Made by a program: the position numbers and the translations under genes. Under the pieces are notes generated by a model. That model was not told where the DNA came from and did no database searches. It worked only from the letters and a program-made list of their open reading frames with translations. DNA of 16,425 nucleotides, taken from positions 1 through 16,425 of IMG/VR virus record IMGVR_UViG_2648501186_000008; one strand, written 5' to 3'. This document shows, piece by piece, positions 6,105-15,119 of this stretch. This stretch comes from a virus (lineage: Duplodnaviria; Heunggongvirae; Uroviricota; Caudoviricetes). The stretch's first letter is position 1. The number at the start of each line of letters is the position of its first letter.

Positions 6105-6527
6105 TCACAGTATCGCCTCCTGAAATTTACCCTGATAGAAAGCCAGTACACGCTGCATAGCTGCGCTCTTCCGGCACTCGCTACAGATTATGTTCTGACG
6201 CCTGTCGTAGCGGCGTATTTCTCCGTCTGGTAATGACCAGATAAGGTCCGGATCAACCACAGATGTTTTCTTCAGATTTGCCCTTGAGAGTTTTTTGCGG
6301 GCATTTTGCCAGTCCTTACGCGCCTGCGCTGACGGGAATAACCCGTAACCAGAGTTGTATACATCGCCGCTGGCAACCAGCTCTCTTGCGAGAACGCTCA
6401 TCAGATATCTTGTTGCCCCAGTTTTAGCTTCCAGTTGTCGTAACGTCTCTCGCCCGCTCTGGCGTACGAGATCAACAATCTGCCCTTTAATTTTTTCCCG
6501 CTCTTCCTGTGTAAATACTTTTGCCAT
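6105..6527 (-). CDS. hypothetical phage protein (140 aa)
   Basis: Start moved to ATG 6527, directly preceded by AGGGGAGGG. The longer ORF-track version begins at an upstream codon overlapping the previous gene. Confidence 0.55.
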   Translation of the reverse strand: MAKVFTQEEREKIKGQIVDLVRQSGRETLRQLEAKTGATRYLMSVLARELVASGDVYNSGYGLFPSAQARKDWQNARKKLSRANLKKTSVVDPDLIWSLPDGEIRRYDRRQNIICSECRKSAAMQRVLAFYQGKFQEAIL

Positions 6528-6543
6528 AAGCCCTCCCCTGGAA

Positions 6544-7269
6544 TCACTTTTCCGACACAATACGACTGGAGGAATCAACAATCTGTCGGACAATATCCCG
6601 GTGCTTGTTCAGCTCCCGCAGCGCGGCGCAGACTCGCTCCCACTTCTGGACATGACTTTTCGCCCGGCGCAGTTCGCGGTTTGCCATATGCAGCGATGGT
6701 AAAATCAGGCCATTCGCTCGCGTTTCAGTGAACGATGGCAGTGACTGCACAAGGTCCGCCACAGTTTCTGTTTTAATTTCCTCCTGTGTTGCCGCTTCCT
6801 GTACTGGTAACGCAACACCGGCTGGCTGAGGAAAGGCTTTACCAGATGTTTTCGCTACCGATACAACTTTCGGCTCTGCTGGTAAATTACCGTCCGGCAG
6901 GCAGTAACGAAATTTACCGTTCTGATTTACGCGAATCAGACGACCTTTGCTGATGGCCATAGCCAGCGATGAGTTCACCCTGCGGGAAGTAATTCTGAAT
7001 ATCAGTGCAAGTTCATCAGCCGCTTTAGGGCCATGCTGTTCAATCGCCTCGATCAGCATTTGCGCTGTCACTTTAGAAGCCTGTGCCACAGATGCGTTTT
7101 CGTCGGTTTGAGTCAACCACCACATCGGGCCCTTGTTATCAGCTTCCCCGCGACGCTTCAGTTTCCACAGCTCGTTAATCGCCTCATCCCGGGTCATTCC
7201 CAGACGTGCTGCCACTTCCTGGGAAGAGGCTTTTCCCATTGCTTTCAGTGCGTCAAAAACGGTCTCCAT
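6544..7269 (-). CDS. putative winged-helix DNA-binding phage protein (241 aa)
   Basis: Start moved to ATG 7269 with GGGAGGAA Shine-Dalgarno. Two segments have helix-turn-helix character (SSQEVAARLGMTRDEAINELWKL and ADELALIFRITSRRVNSSLAMAISKG). Confidence 0.55.
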   Translation of the reverse strand: METVFDALKAMGKASSQEVAARLGMTRDEAINELWKLKRRGEADNKGPMWWLTQTDENASVAQASKVTAQMLIEAIEQHGPKAADELALIFRITSRRVNSSLAMAISKGRLIRVNQNGKFRYCLPDGNLPAEPKVVSVAKTSGKAFPQPAGVALPVQEAATQEEIKTETVADLVQSLPSFTETRANGLILPSLHMANRELRRAKSHVQKWERVCAALRELNKHRDIVRQIVDSSSRIVSEK

Positions 7270-10289: not shown

Positions 10290-10331
10290 TAGGCATAGCC
10301 TATTGACAATCAATTAGGCATTACCTATAGT
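10290..10331 (+). promoter_or_regulatory. pL-like early-left promoter overlapped by two operators (O_L)
   Basis: TTGACA (10303-10308), 17-nt spacer, TATAGT (10326-10331). Operators TAGGCATAGCCTA (10290-10302) and TAGGCATTACCTA (10315-10327) abut the -35 and fill the spacer. Confidence 0.55.
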
Positions 10332-10508
10332 TCCAGCATACCACCCACCCCGCCCCACAGAACGCAGGGCAATACTTCGAGTTACCAGGCAGTGGTCAGG
10401 GGTTAAGTAGCCAGCCCGAGGCGTAAGAACATGACGGCAGGGTTCAACTTTAACTATGCAGCAGGTTTTTGTTCCGCCACCCCGGCGTTAAGGGGAAATG
10501 AGGTCAGC

Positions 10509-10664
10509 ATGGATACTATCGATCTTGGCAACAGCGAATCTCTGGTATGTGGCGTGTTCCCCAACCAGGACGGCACGTTCACTGCGATGACGTATACCAA
10601 AAGCAAAACGTTTAAAACCGAATCTGGCGCGCGTCGCTGGCTGGAAAGAAACTCAGGTGAGTGA
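10509..10664 (+). CDS. small early-left protein (51 aa)
   Basis: ATG 10509 with GAGG 6 nt upstream. The ORF-track version starts at ATG 10431, which is also possible. First ORF of the pL-like operon. Confidence 0.4.
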   Translation: MDTIDLGNSESLVCGVFPNQDGTFTAMTYTKSKTFKTESGARRWLERNSGE

Positions 10665-10665
10665 T

Positions 10666-10794
10666 ATGGATTTCGACACAATCATGGAAAAGGCTTACGA
10701 AGAATACTTCGAAGGCCTTGCCGAAGGCGAAGAAGCTCTCAGCTTCAGTGAGTTTAAACAGGCGCTTTCCAGCTCGGCAAAATCTAACGGCTGA
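10666..10794 (+). CDS. small acidic protein (42 aa), not in the ORF track
   Basis: ATG 10666 with AGGTGAG Shine-Dalgarno, 2 nt after the previous stop; translates MDFDTIMEKAYEEYFEGLAEGEEALSFSEFKQALSSSAKSNG. The overlapping track ORF 10661-10870 (GTG start, Arg/Ser-rich) is the less plausible frame. Confidence 0.35.
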   Translation: MDFDTIMEKAYEEYFEGLAEGEEALSFSEFKQALSSSAKSNG

Positions 10795-10823
10795 TAAGCG
10801 AAGCAGCACCGCGAGGAATCAGT

Positions 10824-11042
10824 ATGCAGAAACGAGAACCCGTCATCATCGCGCCAGACTATACCGATGATGAACTTTATGAGTGGATGCGCCAGAAAAT
10901 TAATGCAGCGCAGGATCTGAAATGGGCCAATGAAGCCAGGGCTAAGCAGGCTGAAAATCTGTCCGCTCTGGAGCAGGATATCACCAGGCTGGAAAAAGCA
11001 GCGGCATTAAGCATTGCCAGAATGATTTCATACCCGCGTTAA
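10824..11042 (+). CDS. small early-left protein (72 aa), helical
   Basis: GAGGAA Shine-Dalgarno before ATG 10824. C-terminal half (AQDLKWANEARAKQAENLSALEQDITRLEKAAALS) looks coiled-coil. Function unknown. Confidence 0.45.
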   Translation: MQKREPVIIAPDYTDDELYEWMRQKINAAQDLKWANEARAKQAENLSALEQDITRLEKAAALSIARMISYPR

Positions 11043-11177
11043 TAGCTAACCAACGAAGCTAAGGTTGGTAATTAAGGAGTTCTCCACGGGTCAGGTGGAG
11101 TGCGTGCGCCGGACACGGGTGAGCATCCGGTACGTTCTTTAAAAATCTGGATAGTCCCAACTTATTTAAACGGTTAA

Positions 11178-11609
11178 TTATCTTGAGTTCATCCAGAACT
11201 TATTATTGCAAGCGGGGCAAAAAGTACGAAAATGAGCATCAAAGCGCATTATTTCCATTGGCTGAAGTACAGATATTACCTTTTTTCCAAAACATTGTGG
11301 GCAAAGATACACAGTTATCTCAGTATCGCCTATAAATTGCTTCTTGGAATATACAAGGGTTCCAGAATCAAGCTTGTTAAGCTTGTAACCTTCCGCCTGT
11401 CGCTGAAAATCTTCTGTCTCTGCAATTTTTGCTTTGAGATGCATTATCTCTTCATCACGAAAGCGGATCGCATCGCAAAGAGAGAAGCATTCCGCCTGAA
11501 GCGTGATTAGTTTGTTCTGAAGTTCAATAGTTGCGGCTTTAACTTCTGCATCCGTTTTTGCGTCATTAATAACCTTAGCGAGACCAGCTGTCTCCTTTAT
11601 CGCAGCCAT
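11178..11609 (-). CDS. coiled-coil protein with C-terminal CxxC...CxxC zinc ribbon (143 aa), antisense to the early-left operon
   Basis: ATG 11609 has only a weak SD; the track extends it to a GTG at 11738. N-terminal heptad-like helix (IELQNKLITLQAE...EEIMHLKAKIAETEDFQRQ); C-terminal CPQC-x24-CPAC. AT-rich relative to its neighbours. Confidence 0.5.
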   Translation of the reverse strand: MAAIKETAGLAKVINDAKTDAEVKAATIELQNKLITLQAECFSLCDAIRFRDEEIMHLKAKIAETEDFQRQAEGYKLNKLDSGTLVYSKKQFIGDTEITVYLCPQCFGKKVISVLQPMEIMRFDAHFRTFCPACNNKFWMNSR

Positions 11610-11640
11610 AGCCGCTGACAGTTCTGCTATCACGTTGAGT

Positions 11641-11700
11641 ACTCTTCTCGTTGTTGGGGATATCCGGATTATACAAATTTCTTGTTGTTGGGGAATAACA
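11641..11700 (-). promoter_or_regulatory. candidate promoter for the zinc-ribbon gene: perfect TATAAT bracketed by an 11-bp direct repeat
   Basis: Minus-strand TATAAT at 11673-11668. Direct repeat GTTGTTGGGGA at 11650-11660 and 11684-11694 (plus strand) sits either side. No good -35. Confidence 0.3.
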
Positions 11701-11949
11701 GGAACCACCTCGCCTGACGTGGTTAAAAGCAGGCACACAACGCGAAAGCGTACGGCGAGGTAGCTGGTTCATAGATAGCCTGTCGTTAAATTTTCGTCGA
11801 CCGTGCACTTCCGGTTGTGGCAATCCGCGAAATGGCGCGGCGGTAAGTATGGCTGGGTTATCCTTACCCCATTAGTGGCACCGGGTTGTCAGGTTGACCA
11901 TACGCTTAAGTGACAACCCCGCTGCAACAACCCATGTTGATTACCTTTT

Positions 11950-11995
11950 GGCGGGTATCCGTTTTTTGTTTTCCCTTGTGATACCCGCCCTTTTT
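11950..11995 (+). terminator. terminator-like hairpin on the plus strand inside the early-left operon
   Basis: Perfect 10-bp stem GGCGGGTATC (11950-11959) / GATACCCGCC (11980-11989), followed by C then five T. The 20-nt loop is long for a canonical terminator. Confidence 0.4.
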
Positions 11996-11999
11996 AAAG

Positions 12000-12161
12000 T
12001 GAATTTTGTGATGCGGTGAATGCGGCTCAGCGCACGCGGAACAGTTAAAAAGGCCAGTTGACTTCCGTATTGGTTCTTATGGGTGGGTTCTCTGTATCCG
12101 GCGTTAATTATTAACTGGTTAACGTCACCTGGAGGCACCAGGCACCGCATCACAAAATTCA
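12000..12161. repeat. perfect 19-bp inverted repeat flanking a 124-bp segment
   Basis: TGAATTTTGTGATGCGGTG at 12000-12018 and its exact reverse complement CACCGCATCACAAAATTCA at 12143-12161. Confidence 0.6.
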
Positions 12162-12178
12162 TTGTTGAGGATGCGATA

Positions 12179-12361
12179 ATGGAAACGTTATTACCAAACG
12201 TCAATACGTCTGAAGGTTGTTTTGAAATTGGTGTCAGAATCAGTAACCCTGTATTTACTGAAGATGCCATTAATAAGAGAAAACACGAACGGGAGCTATT
12301 AAATCAAATATGCATTGTTTCAATGCTGGCCCGTTTACGCCTGATGCAAAAAGGACGATGA
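12179..12361 (+). CDS. small protein (60 aa)
   Basis: ATG 12179 with GAGGA Shine-Dalgarno 8 nt upstream, just after the right inverted-repeat arm. Stop overlaps the next gene's start region. Confidence 0.4.
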   Translation: METLLPNVNTSEGCFEIGVRISNPVFTEDAINKRKHERELLNQICIVSMLARLRLMQKGR

Positions 12362-12363
12362 CA

Positions 12364-12567
12364 ATGAATACAGTATTTGCACTCGTTCTGACGGTTTTTC
12401 TTAATACAAGCGAGCCAGTCGATCTTGTTATTGGTATACATGACTCAATGAAAGAATGCATGGCTGCCGCAGCGGAACAGAAAATTCCCGGCAACTGTTA
12501 TCCGGTTGATAAAGTTACTCGCATGGACAATAACGAAATCCCGGCAGGACTTAAAACAGCACCGTAA
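12364..12567 (+). CDS. small secreted/membrane protein with N-terminal signal-peptide-like segment (67 aa)
   Basis: MNTVFALVLTVFLNTSEP hydrophobic N-terminus. AAGGA 8 nt upstream of ATG 12364; an in-frame ATG at 12358 is too close to the SD. Confidence 0.45.
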   Translation: MNTVFALVLTVFLNTSEPVDLVIGIHDSMKECMAAAAEQKIPGNCYPVDKVTRMDNNEIPAGLKTAP

Positions 12568-12647
12568 TTAATATCCGGTTTCATTTTTATATGCCAGCAA
12601 TGGCAGGGATTTGTTCACCCTTAAATCTGTAATGAGGTTAAAACAAA

Positions 12648-15119
12648 ATGAGTAAAGTCTTTATTTGCGCCGCCATTCCGGACGAACAGGCAATAAAGGA
12701 AGAAGGTGCAGTCGCTGTAGCCACTGCCATTGAAGCCGGCGACGAACGCCGCGCCCGAGCCAAATTTACCTGGCAATTCCTGGAGCAATATCCGGCTGCT
12801 CAGGACTGCGCTTATAAATTTCTTGTTTGCGAGGATAAACCCGGCATGCCCCGCCCTGCCATCGACTCCTGGGATACCGAATATATGCAGGAAAACTGCT
12901 GGGATGAGGAATCCGCTTCCTTTATTCCGGTCGAACCAGAATCCGATCCGATGAACGTCAATTTTGACAAGCTGTCCCCTGAAGTACAGAACGCGGTCCT
13001 GGTTAAGTTCGACACATGTGAAAACATCACCGTTGATATGGTTATTAGCGCACAGGAATTGTTGCAGGAAGACATGGCAACATTCGACGGACATATCGTT
13101 GAAGCGTTGATGAAAATGCCAGAAGTTAACGCCATGTATCCGGAGCTTAAGTTGCACGCCATTGGGTGGGTTAAGCATAAATGTATTCCTGGTGCTAAAT
13201 GGCCCGAAATTCAGGCAGAGATGCGCATCTGGAAAAAACGTCGCGAAGGTGAACGCAAGGAAACCGGAAAATACACGTCTGTTGTTGATCTCGCCCGCGC
13301 CAGAGCCAATCAACAGTACACTGACAATTCAACAGGAAAAATCAGCCCGGTCATTGCTGCCACTCATCGCGAATACAAGCAGACATGGAAAACACTGGAT
13401 GACGAACTGGCCTACGCTCTCTGGCCTGGTGATGTGGATGCCGGAAACATTGACGGCAGCATCCATCGCTGGGCAAAAAATGAAGTTATCGACAACGACC
13501 GCGAAGACTGGAAGCGTATCTCGGCATCAATGCGCAAACAGCCTGATGCCCTTCGCTACGACCGCCAGACTATTTTTGGCCTTGTCCGTGAACGTCCGAT
13601 CGACATTCACAAAGACCCTGTGGCACTGAACAAATACATTACTGAATACCTGACTACAAAGGGCGTGTTTGAAGATGAAGGAAGAAATCAGAGCGCAACT
13701 GATACTCTCTCGTCGCCAGTACCAGAAACTGATGCAGTGGAAACGGCAATTCCGGACAACGAAAAAACCGAATGCAAAGTGGAAGTCGAACCATCTGTAG
13801 AGCGTGAGGGGCCGTTCTACTTCCTCTTCACCGACAAGGATGGCGAAAAATATGGTCGCGCAAACAAACTTTCTGGTCTGAATAAGGCGCTGACTGCAGG
13901 GGCTACTGAAATCACGAAAGAAGAATATTTTGCCCGTAAAAACGGTACATACTCAGGTTCACAACAAAATACTGGTGCATCTGACACGACCGCACAACCA
14001 GAGCCGGTAAAAGTTACCGCTGACGAAGTAAACAAAATTATGCAGGCAGCCAATATCAGCCAGCCTGACGCCGATAAGTTGCTTGCTGTATCACGTGGTG
14101 AATTTGTTGCAGGGATTAGCGACCCGAATGATCCGAAATGGGTGAAGGGGATTGAAACCCGCGATTCAGTGAATCAGAACCAGCAAGAAACGGAACAGAA
14201 CGACCAGAAAGCGGAACAAAACAGCCCAAATGCGTTACAAAACGAGCCAGAAACGAAACAACCTGAGCCAGTAGCGCAACAGGAAGCGGAAAAAGTCTGC
14301 ACCGCCTGCGGTCAGACCGGCGGCGGCAACTGCCCTGATTGTGGTGCGGTGATGGGCGACGCAACATACCAGGAAACATTCGATGACAAGAACCAGGTTA
14401 AAGTTCAGGAAGACGATTCGGAGAAAATGGAAGGCGCTGAACATCCACACAAAGAGAATGCTGGCAGCGCTCAGGATCACGCCAGCGATAGTGAAACTGG
14501 CGAGACGGCAGATCCCTTAATTACGGTGAACGGTCATCACGTTATCACATCCACCAGCAGGACGTGTGACCATCTAATGATCGACCTTGAAACCATGGGA
14601 AAAAATCCTGATGCCCCGATTATCTCAATAGGTGCAATATTTTTCGATCCGCAAACCGGAGATATGGGACCGGAATTTAGTAAGACTATCGATCTGGAAA
14701 CTGCTGGCGGAGTCATTGATCGGGACACCATTAAATGGTGGCTTAAGCAATCACGCGAAGCGCAATCTGCCATTATGACCGATGAAATCCCGTTAGATGA
14801 TGCACTGTTACAATTGCGGGAATTTATCGACGAAAACTCCGGTGAATTTTTTGTTCAGGTCTGGGGAAATGGAGCCAACTTCGACAACACGATTTTGCGC
14901 CGTTCATACGAACGGCAGGGGATCCCCTGCCCGTGGCGTTACTACAACGATCGCGATGTACGCACAATCGTTGAGCTGGGGAAAGCCATAGACTTCGATG
15001 CCAGAACGGCTATTCCATTCGAAGGTGAGCGCCATAATGCACTTGATGACGCCCGTTACCAGGCAAAATACGTTTCAGCAATCTGGCAAAAACTGATCCC
15101 GAATCCGGTTGATTTTTAA
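12648..15119 (+). CDS. RecE-like (exonuclease VIII family) protein whose C-terminal domain is a DnaQ-like DEDDh 3'-5' exonuclease
   Basis: 823 aa. Internal segment DKLLAVSRGEFVAGISDPNDPKWVKGIETRD matches a segment of Rac RecE as I remember it. C-terminal 180 aa carry the three DEDDh motifs: MIDLETMG, WGNGANFDN and HNALDDARYQ. Also a CTAC-x7-CPDC zinc ribbon and a Gln/Glu-rich linker. Confidence 0.7.
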   Translation: MSKVFICAAIPDEQAIKEEGAVAVATAIEAGDERRARAKFTWQFLEQYPAAQDCAYKFLVCEDKPGMPRPAIDSWDTEYMQENCWDEESASFIPVEPESDPMNVNFDKLSPEVQNAVLVKFDTCENITVDMVISAQELLQEDMATFDGHIVEALMKMPEVNAMYPELKLHAIGWVKHKCIPGAKWPEIQAEMRIWKKRREGERKETGKYTSVVDLARARANQQYTDNSTGKISPVIAATHREYKQTWKTLDDELAYALWPGDVDAGNIDGSIHRWAKNEVIDNDREDWKRISASMRKQPDALRYDRQTIFGLVRERPIDIHKDPVALNKYITEYLTTKGVFEDEGRNQSATDTLSSPVPETDAVETAIPDNEKTECKVEVEPSVEREGPFYFLFTDKDGEKYGRANKLSGLNKALTAGATEITKEEYFARKNGTYSGSQQNTGASDTTAQPEPVKVTADEVNKIMQAANISQPDADKLLAVSRGEFVAGISDPNDPKWVKGIETRDSVNQNQQETEQNDQKAEQNSPNALQNEPETKQPEPVAQQEAEKVCTACGQTGGGNCPDCGAVMGDATYQETFDDKNQVKVQEDDSEKMEGAEHPHKENAGSAQDHASDSETGETADPLITVNGHHVITSTSRTCDHLMIDLETMGKNPDAPIISIGAIFFDPQTGDMGPEFSKTIDLETAGGVIDRDTIKWWLKQSREAQSAIMTDEIPLDDALLQLREFIDENSGEFFVQVWGNGANFDNTILRRSYERQGIPCPWRYYNDRDVRTIVELGKAIDFDARTAIPFEGERHNALDDARYQAKYVSAIWQKLIPNPVDF

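Follow-up and report, generated by a model that had tools for sequence, protein, structure and literature searches.

The stretch of DNA analysed here (the window; 16,425 nucleotides) is a defective Qin/Kim-like lambdoid prophage. It matches, with 100% identity, the prophage adjoining yccA/tusE in pig-associated E. coli, in which dicB is annotated (RefSeq). Related sequence was found in 4630 of 5426 complete E. coli genomes, mostly with 80–90% identity, and the window region is ~85% identical to more than 4000 further E. coli loci. In the window, the cell-division inhibitor gene dicB occupies positions 12179–12361 on the + strand, as identified by the Pfam DicB family (PF05358, 1.5e-37) and by the RefSeq annotation of the identical locus, and its Shine-Dalgarno (SD) sequence, GAGGA, lies at 12167–12171 (+). 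Upstream of dicB, an inverted repeat follows the terminator hairpin of a small RNA (sRNA). The gene ydfC lies upstream of the repeat, and the DUF1482, exonuclease, DUF4224, and integrase genes lie downstream. The synteny of ydfC, the sRNA, and dicB, together with the sequence orthology of the spacer to that of K-12, identifies the spacer as that of a dicBF-type operon, and the repeat sits in the early-left (pL-like) dicB operon of a Qin/Kim-type lambdoid prophage.

A DnaT-like replication gene without its N-terminus (10323–10796, − strand) lies only 27 bp from ydfC (10824, + strand). The abutment of this truncated gene on ydfC indicates that the repressor/cro immunity region (dicA/dicC-like), both early promoters, ydfA, and ydfB are missing. 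In addition, a scan of positions 10400–12700 yielded no sigma-70-like site on the + strand. The promoter of the dicB operon has probably been lost from this prophage and, as the immunity region is also gone and the scanned + strand has no promoter-like site, the module is possibly a relic that is not transcribed. A spacer-internal promoter was also considered and was rejected by the same scan: the TTGACT sequence in a 14-nt insertion in the spacer has no acceptable −10 partner.

Between ydfC and the sRNA region, ~680 nt (11043–11720) are present that are absent from K-12 Qin. An antisense ORF in this insertion (11178–11738, − strand) belongs to phrog_1244, of unknown function, and is annotated as hypothetical in the identical genome; it had no confident match in Pfam and none in PADLOC. 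Further downstream, a GTG-initiated ORF of 92 codons (12083–12361, + strand) begins within the structured core of the spacer, described below, and runs in frame into dicB. Elsewhere in the prophage, a ParD/ParE toxin–antitoxin pair (6273–6835, + strand) is located on the strand opposite to that of the surrounding late-regulatory genes.

The two arms of the inverted repeat (12000–12018, TGAATTTTGTGATGCGGTG, and 12143–12161) are each 19 nt long, are 100% complementary, and are separated by a gap of 124 nt, exactly as given in the original prediction. The repeat is the longest perfect inverted repeat in the window at gaps of up to 300 nt. In 200 dinucleotide-preserving shuffles of the window, the longest inverted repeat was usually 10–12 bp and reached a maximum of 16 bp, which bears out the earlier claim that a 19-bp repeat is unlikely by chance. 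No other copy of the 19-mer was found in the window with up to 3 mismatches allowed, and two matches were observed in none of the 200 dinucleotide shuffles. The right arm had been placed 7 nt before the SD sequence, but the actual distance to GAGGA is 5 nt.

The hairpin with a T-run that had been described just upstream of the repeat was likewise confirmed. Its arms (11950–11959 and 11980–11989) form a stem of 10 bp that is 100% complementary, with a 20-nt loop, and are followed by C and TTTTT (11991–11995). With its GC-rich stem, containing 7 G-C pairs, and the C + UUUUU tail, the hairpin (11950–11995, + strand) has the features of an intrinsic (Rho-independent) terminator and is the predicted terminator of the sRNA. 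It occupies the position equivalent to that of the DicF and KilS terminators, both of which end in ...CCGCCCTTTTT.

The sRNA itself (11935–11995, + strand, with an approximate 5′ boundary) is neither DicF nor KilS. The K-12 dicF gene (2383–2435 of the K-12 Qin locus, L003) aligns with 11935–11995 position by position, but the sequence has been replaced. For Rfam DicF, no match was obtained in the window at either the gathering or a permissive threshold, and the scores elsewhere were 76.7 bits for K-12 and 72.5 bits for phage Tritos. At the gathering threshold, no Rfam family matched anywhere in the window. In place of DicF, a different sRNA with a similar terminator is therefore found immediately upstream of the spacer, and this variant is present, unannotated, in 158 of the 5426 complete E. 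coli genomes. The variant keeps the DicF-like terminator frame (UUUGGCGG...CCGCCCUUUUU), whereas the 5′ region and the loop differ, so that the part of the DicF loop that is complementary to the ftsZ leader is missing. As for the duplex energies with the ftsZ leader, neither DicF nor the variant was separable from shuffled sequences. In viral contigs, 5′ regions and hairpins are combined in at least nine mosaic ways in the slot before the stem; the sRNA slot is a mosaic cassette that holds DicF, KilS, the unannotated variant of the window, or others.

A separate observation concerns DicF and the dicB message. The 5′ sequence of DicF, GACGUUUGG, is complementary to the dicB codons CCAAACGU(U/C), and the two segments are paired in the MFE fold of the K-12 RNA. 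This 9-nt match involves L003 2390–2398 and 2627–2635, and the dicB side in the window is at 12197–12205. The match could reflect chance, or a link in cis or in trans between DicF and the dicB mRNA.

As RNA, the inverted repeat forms a helix of 21 bp, hereafter P1, in which an A-U and a G·U pair are added to the 19 bp of the perfect arms. The left strand, of 21 nt, spans 11998–12018 (+ strand; placed by the fold, covariation, and RNAalifold) and pairs with the right strand at 12143–12163 (+ strand; placed by the fold and covariation). P1 starts 3 nt past the U-run of the terminator, and the perfect right arm ends 5 nt upstream of the dicB SD sequence. The MFE fold of the window RNA (11996–12165) is a four-way junction closed by P1, with a free energy of −71.5 kcal/mol (z = −5.9 against shuffles), and the K-12 spacer RNA gave the same fold. 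The structured core enclosed by P1 (12019–12142, + strand) consists of an AAU linker followed by H1, H2, H3, and H4, all on the + strand. H1 (12022–12037) is the first core hairpin, and H2 (12038–12099) is a variable arm that carries the 14-nt insertion relative to K-12. H3 (12100–12126) and H4 (12128–12142; CCUGG-AGGCA-CCAGG) covary, the N-N′ pair of H4 being UA in 46 copies and GC in 8.

Relatives were gathered from species-representative genomes and viral contigs, and 54 distinct long-stem copies were aligned. Pairing in P1 was retained at 96.7% among these relatives, with compensatory double changes in 10 of the 21 pairs, whereas slid controls gave 31–43% pairing. In 500 covariation shuffles, the observed values were never reached on four of five measures and were reached once on the fifth. 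RNAalifold, applied to the 54 relatives with no structure supplied, recovered P1, H1, H3, and H4. The copies from Citrobacter, Klebsiella, and Scandinavium retain a stem of ~20 bp, whereas their arm sequences are largely different. In addition, the P1 cells of the alignment contained 98 G·U as against 15 A·C combinations, and P1 pairing was 96.7% when read on the + strand compared to 89.4% on the − strand. This excess of G·U over A·C indicates that P1 reads better on the + strand. The covariation, the strand bias, and the constant orientation of the element exclude a chance repeat, and the alignment points clearly to selection of the repeat as a + strand RNA helix across Enterobacterales prophages.

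The K-12 Qin dicF–dicB locus carries ydfC, an sRNA with its terminator, a spacer, dicB, and a small gene in the same order as the window. The window is colinear with K-12 Qin and phage Tritos, with a mean column identity of 91%, and its hairpin lies exactly at the position of DicF and its terminator. In K-12 Qin, P1 equals the 21-bp helix of the window save two G·U pairs, and the interior folds are alike. The original prediction would be refuted by an imperfect repeat in close relatives with no change in expression; as DNA, the K-12 arms do differ at two positions, but both differences form G·U pairs and the pairing is kept in the RNA. The window differs from K-12 Qin in that its sRNA is not DicF, H2 is longer by 14 nt, the ~680 nt with the antisense ORF are inserted, and neither the operon promoter nor the immunity region is present.

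The K-12 locus also provides the evidence for processing at P1. The full-length dicBF mRNA is reported to be cut by RNase III to give a 72-nt DicF, whereas a 53-nt form arises from termination (Faubladier, Cam and Bouché 1990, as quoted in PMC5069750 and PMC9438474). Measured from the annotated 5′ end of K-12 DicF, the quoted length of 72 nt ends at L003 2454, which is the 12th nucleotide of the 21-nt left strand (2443–2463) and corresponds to position 12009 of the window. Any K-12 species of 61–81 nt from the DicF 5′ end would have its 3′ terminus within the left strand of P1. The location of the 72-nt DicF 3′ end, judged by length, in the middle of the left strand makes an RNase III site the most likely role of the helix.

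The properties of P1 are consistent with this role. RNase III accommodates a duplex of ~22 bp and cuts both strands, leaving a 2-nt 3′ overhang; usually, the two-position interval between the cuts is base-paired and includes at least one G-C. P1 offers 21 uninterrupted pairs, 19 of them Watson-Crick, in line with the ~20–22 bp of uninterrupted duplex characteristic of an E. coli RNase III site, and distant relatives retain a stem of this length. If the cut lies where the RNA length places it, at ..UUUUGU^GAUG.., the interval between the cuts would consist of a G-C and a U-A pair. Judging from the K-12 RNA lengths as quoted and the annotated DicF 5′ end, the RNase III cut most likely falls within P1. 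In the RNA-seq table for an rnc deletion (Gordon 2017 Table S1), position 1649470 in the dicF–dicB spacer had 0 and 0 reads in the wild type and 26 in the mutant. This position falls 8 nt 3′ of the left strand, outside P1, and because the table is noisy at such low coverage, the support that it gives is weak.

A 190-nt DicF species has also been described, the 5′ end of which is RNase III-dependent. A long imperfect hairpin lies upstream of the sRNA, at approximately L003 2173–2258 in K-12 and 11735–11820 in the window, and the approximate 5′ end of the 190-nt species maps to its 3′ strand. The position of this end suggests that the sRNA is bracketed by two double-stranded RNA sites. A diverged second copy of the element at 11813–11932 was considered, as some motifs there are alike, but GGUUGUGG folds into the separate long imperfect hairpin in both K-12 and the window. 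This hairpin accounts better for the 5′ end of the 190-nt DicF, which depends on RNase III, and the idea of a second copy was dropped as unsupported.

Overall, these results suggest, with a rough probability of three in four, that P1 is a helix processed by RNase III, closing the structured spacer that separates the sRNA from dicB. The orthologous processing site of K-12 is already in the literature, and the repeat is real but ordinary.

According to this model, the two arms would pair in the + strand early-left dicB transcript, so that P1 closes a four-way junction of ~125 nt between the sRNA terminator and dicB. Transcripts that halt at the terminator would yield the small RNA only, whereas in read-through transcripts P1 would present two helical turns of unbroken double-stranded RNA. 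RNase III would then cut both strands near the middle of P1, at ~12009/12010 on the left and ~12153/12154 on the right, the latter position being predicted from the geometry of the 2-nt overhang. Cleavage would part the upstream sRNA, with a tail of ~14–19 nt, from the dicB message, and would free the structured core, on which ~10 bp of the stem would remain. The processed dicB mRNA would have its 5′ end at ~12154 and a leader of ~25 nt, with the ribosome-binding site predicted to be unpaired. One of the possibilities raised originally was a long RNA stem that gates read-through into the downstream genes. The part of this proposal that comes close to the evidence is a stem on the early-left transcript that affects the downstream genes; gating is not indicated, as the stem follows the terminator and its K-12 orthologue matches the reported RNase III site.

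The effect on dicB was modelled by partition-function folds. The mean unpaired probability of the SD sequence rose from 0.18 in the unprocessed RNA to 0.77 in the processed RNA of the window, and from 0.19 to 0.79 in that of K-12, whereas the dicB start codon was paired in both the unprocessed and the processed models. Thermodynamically, cleavage is thus predicted to unmask the SD sequence, and this may affect the translation of dicB.

The core enclosed by P1 resembles a known family of RNAs. STnc100 and its relative PasD are sRNAs of prophages; for their conserved core, the literature consulted on the family gives no function. In a permissive Rfam scan, positions 12002–12156 matched model positions 21–154 of 206 of STnc100 (RF02076), with 33.5 bits (E = 1.9e-5), and the two repeat arms coincide with the model's outer stem. 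The core motif TCACC-N-GGAGGCACC-N′-GGCAC was found at no fewer than 120 loci across Enterobacterales, often several per genome, and N and N′ were complementary in the elements examined. About 110 distinct elements share a common plan: an outer helix, usually of 6–12 bp, GGUGAAU, a first hairpin, one or more variable arms, a conserved terminal hairpin, and the 3′ strand of the outer helix. Canonical STnc100 copies at other loci scored 48–90 bits, above the Rfam threshold, and many of them have −35/−10-like boxes just upstream. In a Citrobacter braakii prophage array (L077 3717–5512), three above-threshold STnc100 copies are interleaved with four tRNA genes, and one copy stops 9 nt short of a tRNA, a hint that the processing context is shared.

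Like STnc100 and PasD, the window element is located in a prophage and has an outer helix followed by GGUGAAU and a multi-branch core. As in STnc100, its terminal hairpin, CACC-N-GGAGGCACC-N′-GG, abuts the 3′ strand of the outer helix. In contrast, H1 reads GCGGCU..GCGCACGC in the window element but CCCCCU..GCGG.GGGG in STnc100, and P1 is 21 bp rather than the 6–12 bp of canonical copies. The 3′ third of the STnc100 model is unmatched, and the right strand in the window instead precedes the dicB SD sequence. The score of 33.5 bits does not reach the STnc100 gathering score of 47 bits. The window element also has none of the parts of a stand-alone sRNA: no promoter-like site on the + strand, no 3′ seed, and no terminator. 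For these reasons, the core is treated here as a sub-threshold relative of STnc100 and not as a member.

These similarities raise the possibility that P1 mainly closes an autonomous RNA of the STnc100/PasD type, in which case RNase III would excise a stable core of ~140 nt and the processing of dicB would be secondary. This proposal overlaps the RNase III explanation and is not exclusive of it. It is in keeping with the STnc100 match and the placement of the model's outer helix on the arms, with the wide distribution of the core motif and the canonical copies that reach the Rfam threshold, and with the canonical outer helix of 6–12 bp, which approximates the remainder after a central cut of the 21-bp stem. 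STnc100 copies are, moreover, expressed, one having been seen by Northern blot in EHEC. Its appeal is reduced by the score below the gathering value, by the misfit of H1 to the STnc100 model, and by the window element being without a terminator, a seed part, and a promoter of its own. An excised core RNA is also unreported, as is a core function for any family member in the literature consulted. A primary role of this kind is a possibility to be kept in mind, but a doubtful one. More speculative, and in our view rather unlikely, is the reading of the dicF–dicB and kilS–kilR spacers as embedded members of an STnc100/PasD superfamily, whose ~21-bp stem would be adapted for the excision of the core by RNase III as a stable RNA.

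Alternatively, the stem may act uncleaved, by masking the dicB ribosome-binding site, by stabilising the downstream message, or by shielding the 3′ end of the sRNA from exonucleases. Such a role would suit the tight placement of the stem, 3 nt after the U-run and 5 nt before the SD sequence, and the prediction that, before processing, the SD sequence is paired in a short helix stacked beneath P1. However, an uninterrupted duplex of 21 bp is a standard substrate for RNase III in E. coli, and the secondary accounts cited above describe, at the corresponding distance, a DicF 3′ end that depends on rnc. Furthermore, a length of ~20 bp, and not just any stable stem, is kept across genera, which fits an enzyme that measures the helix. 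Action of the stem without cleavage thus appears improbable compared with the RNase III processing proposed here.

The remaining explanations, which operate at the level of DNA, are not supported by the pattern of conservation. A miniature inverted-repeat insertion between the terminator and dicB had been suggested, and the 124-bp segment does show the architecture of terminal inverted repeats, with related cores occurring several times per genome in prophages. There is, however, a single copy in the window with no flanking target duplication in its sequence, and all the long-stem copies share one syntenic slot, which is followed by dicB, kilR, or a comparable small gene. The arms also diverge by lineage yet stay complementary, with G·U pairs included, which indicates selection at the RNA level rather than recognition of ends by a transposase, and a mobile element is accordingly very improbable. 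Nor do the two identical inverted 19-bp sites, 124 bp apart, make it credible that the arms are recombination sites of an invertible segment or protein-binding half-sites of a DNA-looping operator, both of which descend from the original prediction, since the core follows the left arm in the forward orientation at 88 loci and inverted at 0, no invertase is annotated in the window, where the sole annotated recombinase is the prophage integrase ~3 kb downstream, arm complementarity but not arm sequence is conserved between genera through compensatory changes, and an asymmetry between the strands, in which G·U pairs on one would be A·C mismatches on the other, is unexpected for DNA sites.

The same module is present in K-12 Rac, where the Hfq-associated sRNA KilS ends in ...CCGCCCTTTTT and is followed by AAAGTGAATTTTGTGATGCGGTG, a similar core, and the right strand. 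Here the cell-division inhibitor gene is kilR, not dicB, and lies ~175 nt downstream of KilS; the long P1 contains a one-nucleotide bulge and a G·U pair in the right strand. The Rac module spans L247 1700–2010 (− strand), and its K-12 copy is mismatched in the conserved terminal hairpin H4 (CCAGAC instead of CCAGGC). No RNase III mapping of the KilS–kilR stem was found in the literature consulted. In the rnc-deletion RNA-seq table, K-12 position 1418510, in the kilR–sieB intergenic region, had 0 and 0 reads in the wild type and 41 in the mutant, at low coverage. This position lies 8 nt upstream of the KilS 5′ end and parallels the RNase III site upstream of DicF.

In the T7 early region and the lambda N leader, RNase III sites separate the units of phage early mRNAs, and these sites are simple hairpins, often with internal loops. 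The window element would share with them a long helix in an early polycistronic phage transcript, cleavage by the host RNase III, and a possible change in downstream translation. Unlike those sites, however, the window helix closes a conserved four-way junction, and the unit upstream of it is a regulatory sRNA. An antiterminator RNA like the put sites of HK022 was rejected as an identity for the element, as the putL and putR sequences are unlike it and it lies after a terminator, far from any promoter.

The repeat would thus provide the structure behind the processing that has long been described for the dicBF operon of K-12, and the consequences of this finding are modest. The resemblance of the spacer core to the widespread and functionally unexplained STnc100/PasD prophage RNAs may interest specialists; if the spacers were indeed embedded members of that superfamily, one early-left transcript would give rise to an sRNA with a swappable seed, a structured core RNA, and the mRNA of a division inhibitor. 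Together with the Rac module, the locus points to a conserved processing scaffold with swapped regulatory seeds, placed upstream of toxic cell-division inhibitors.
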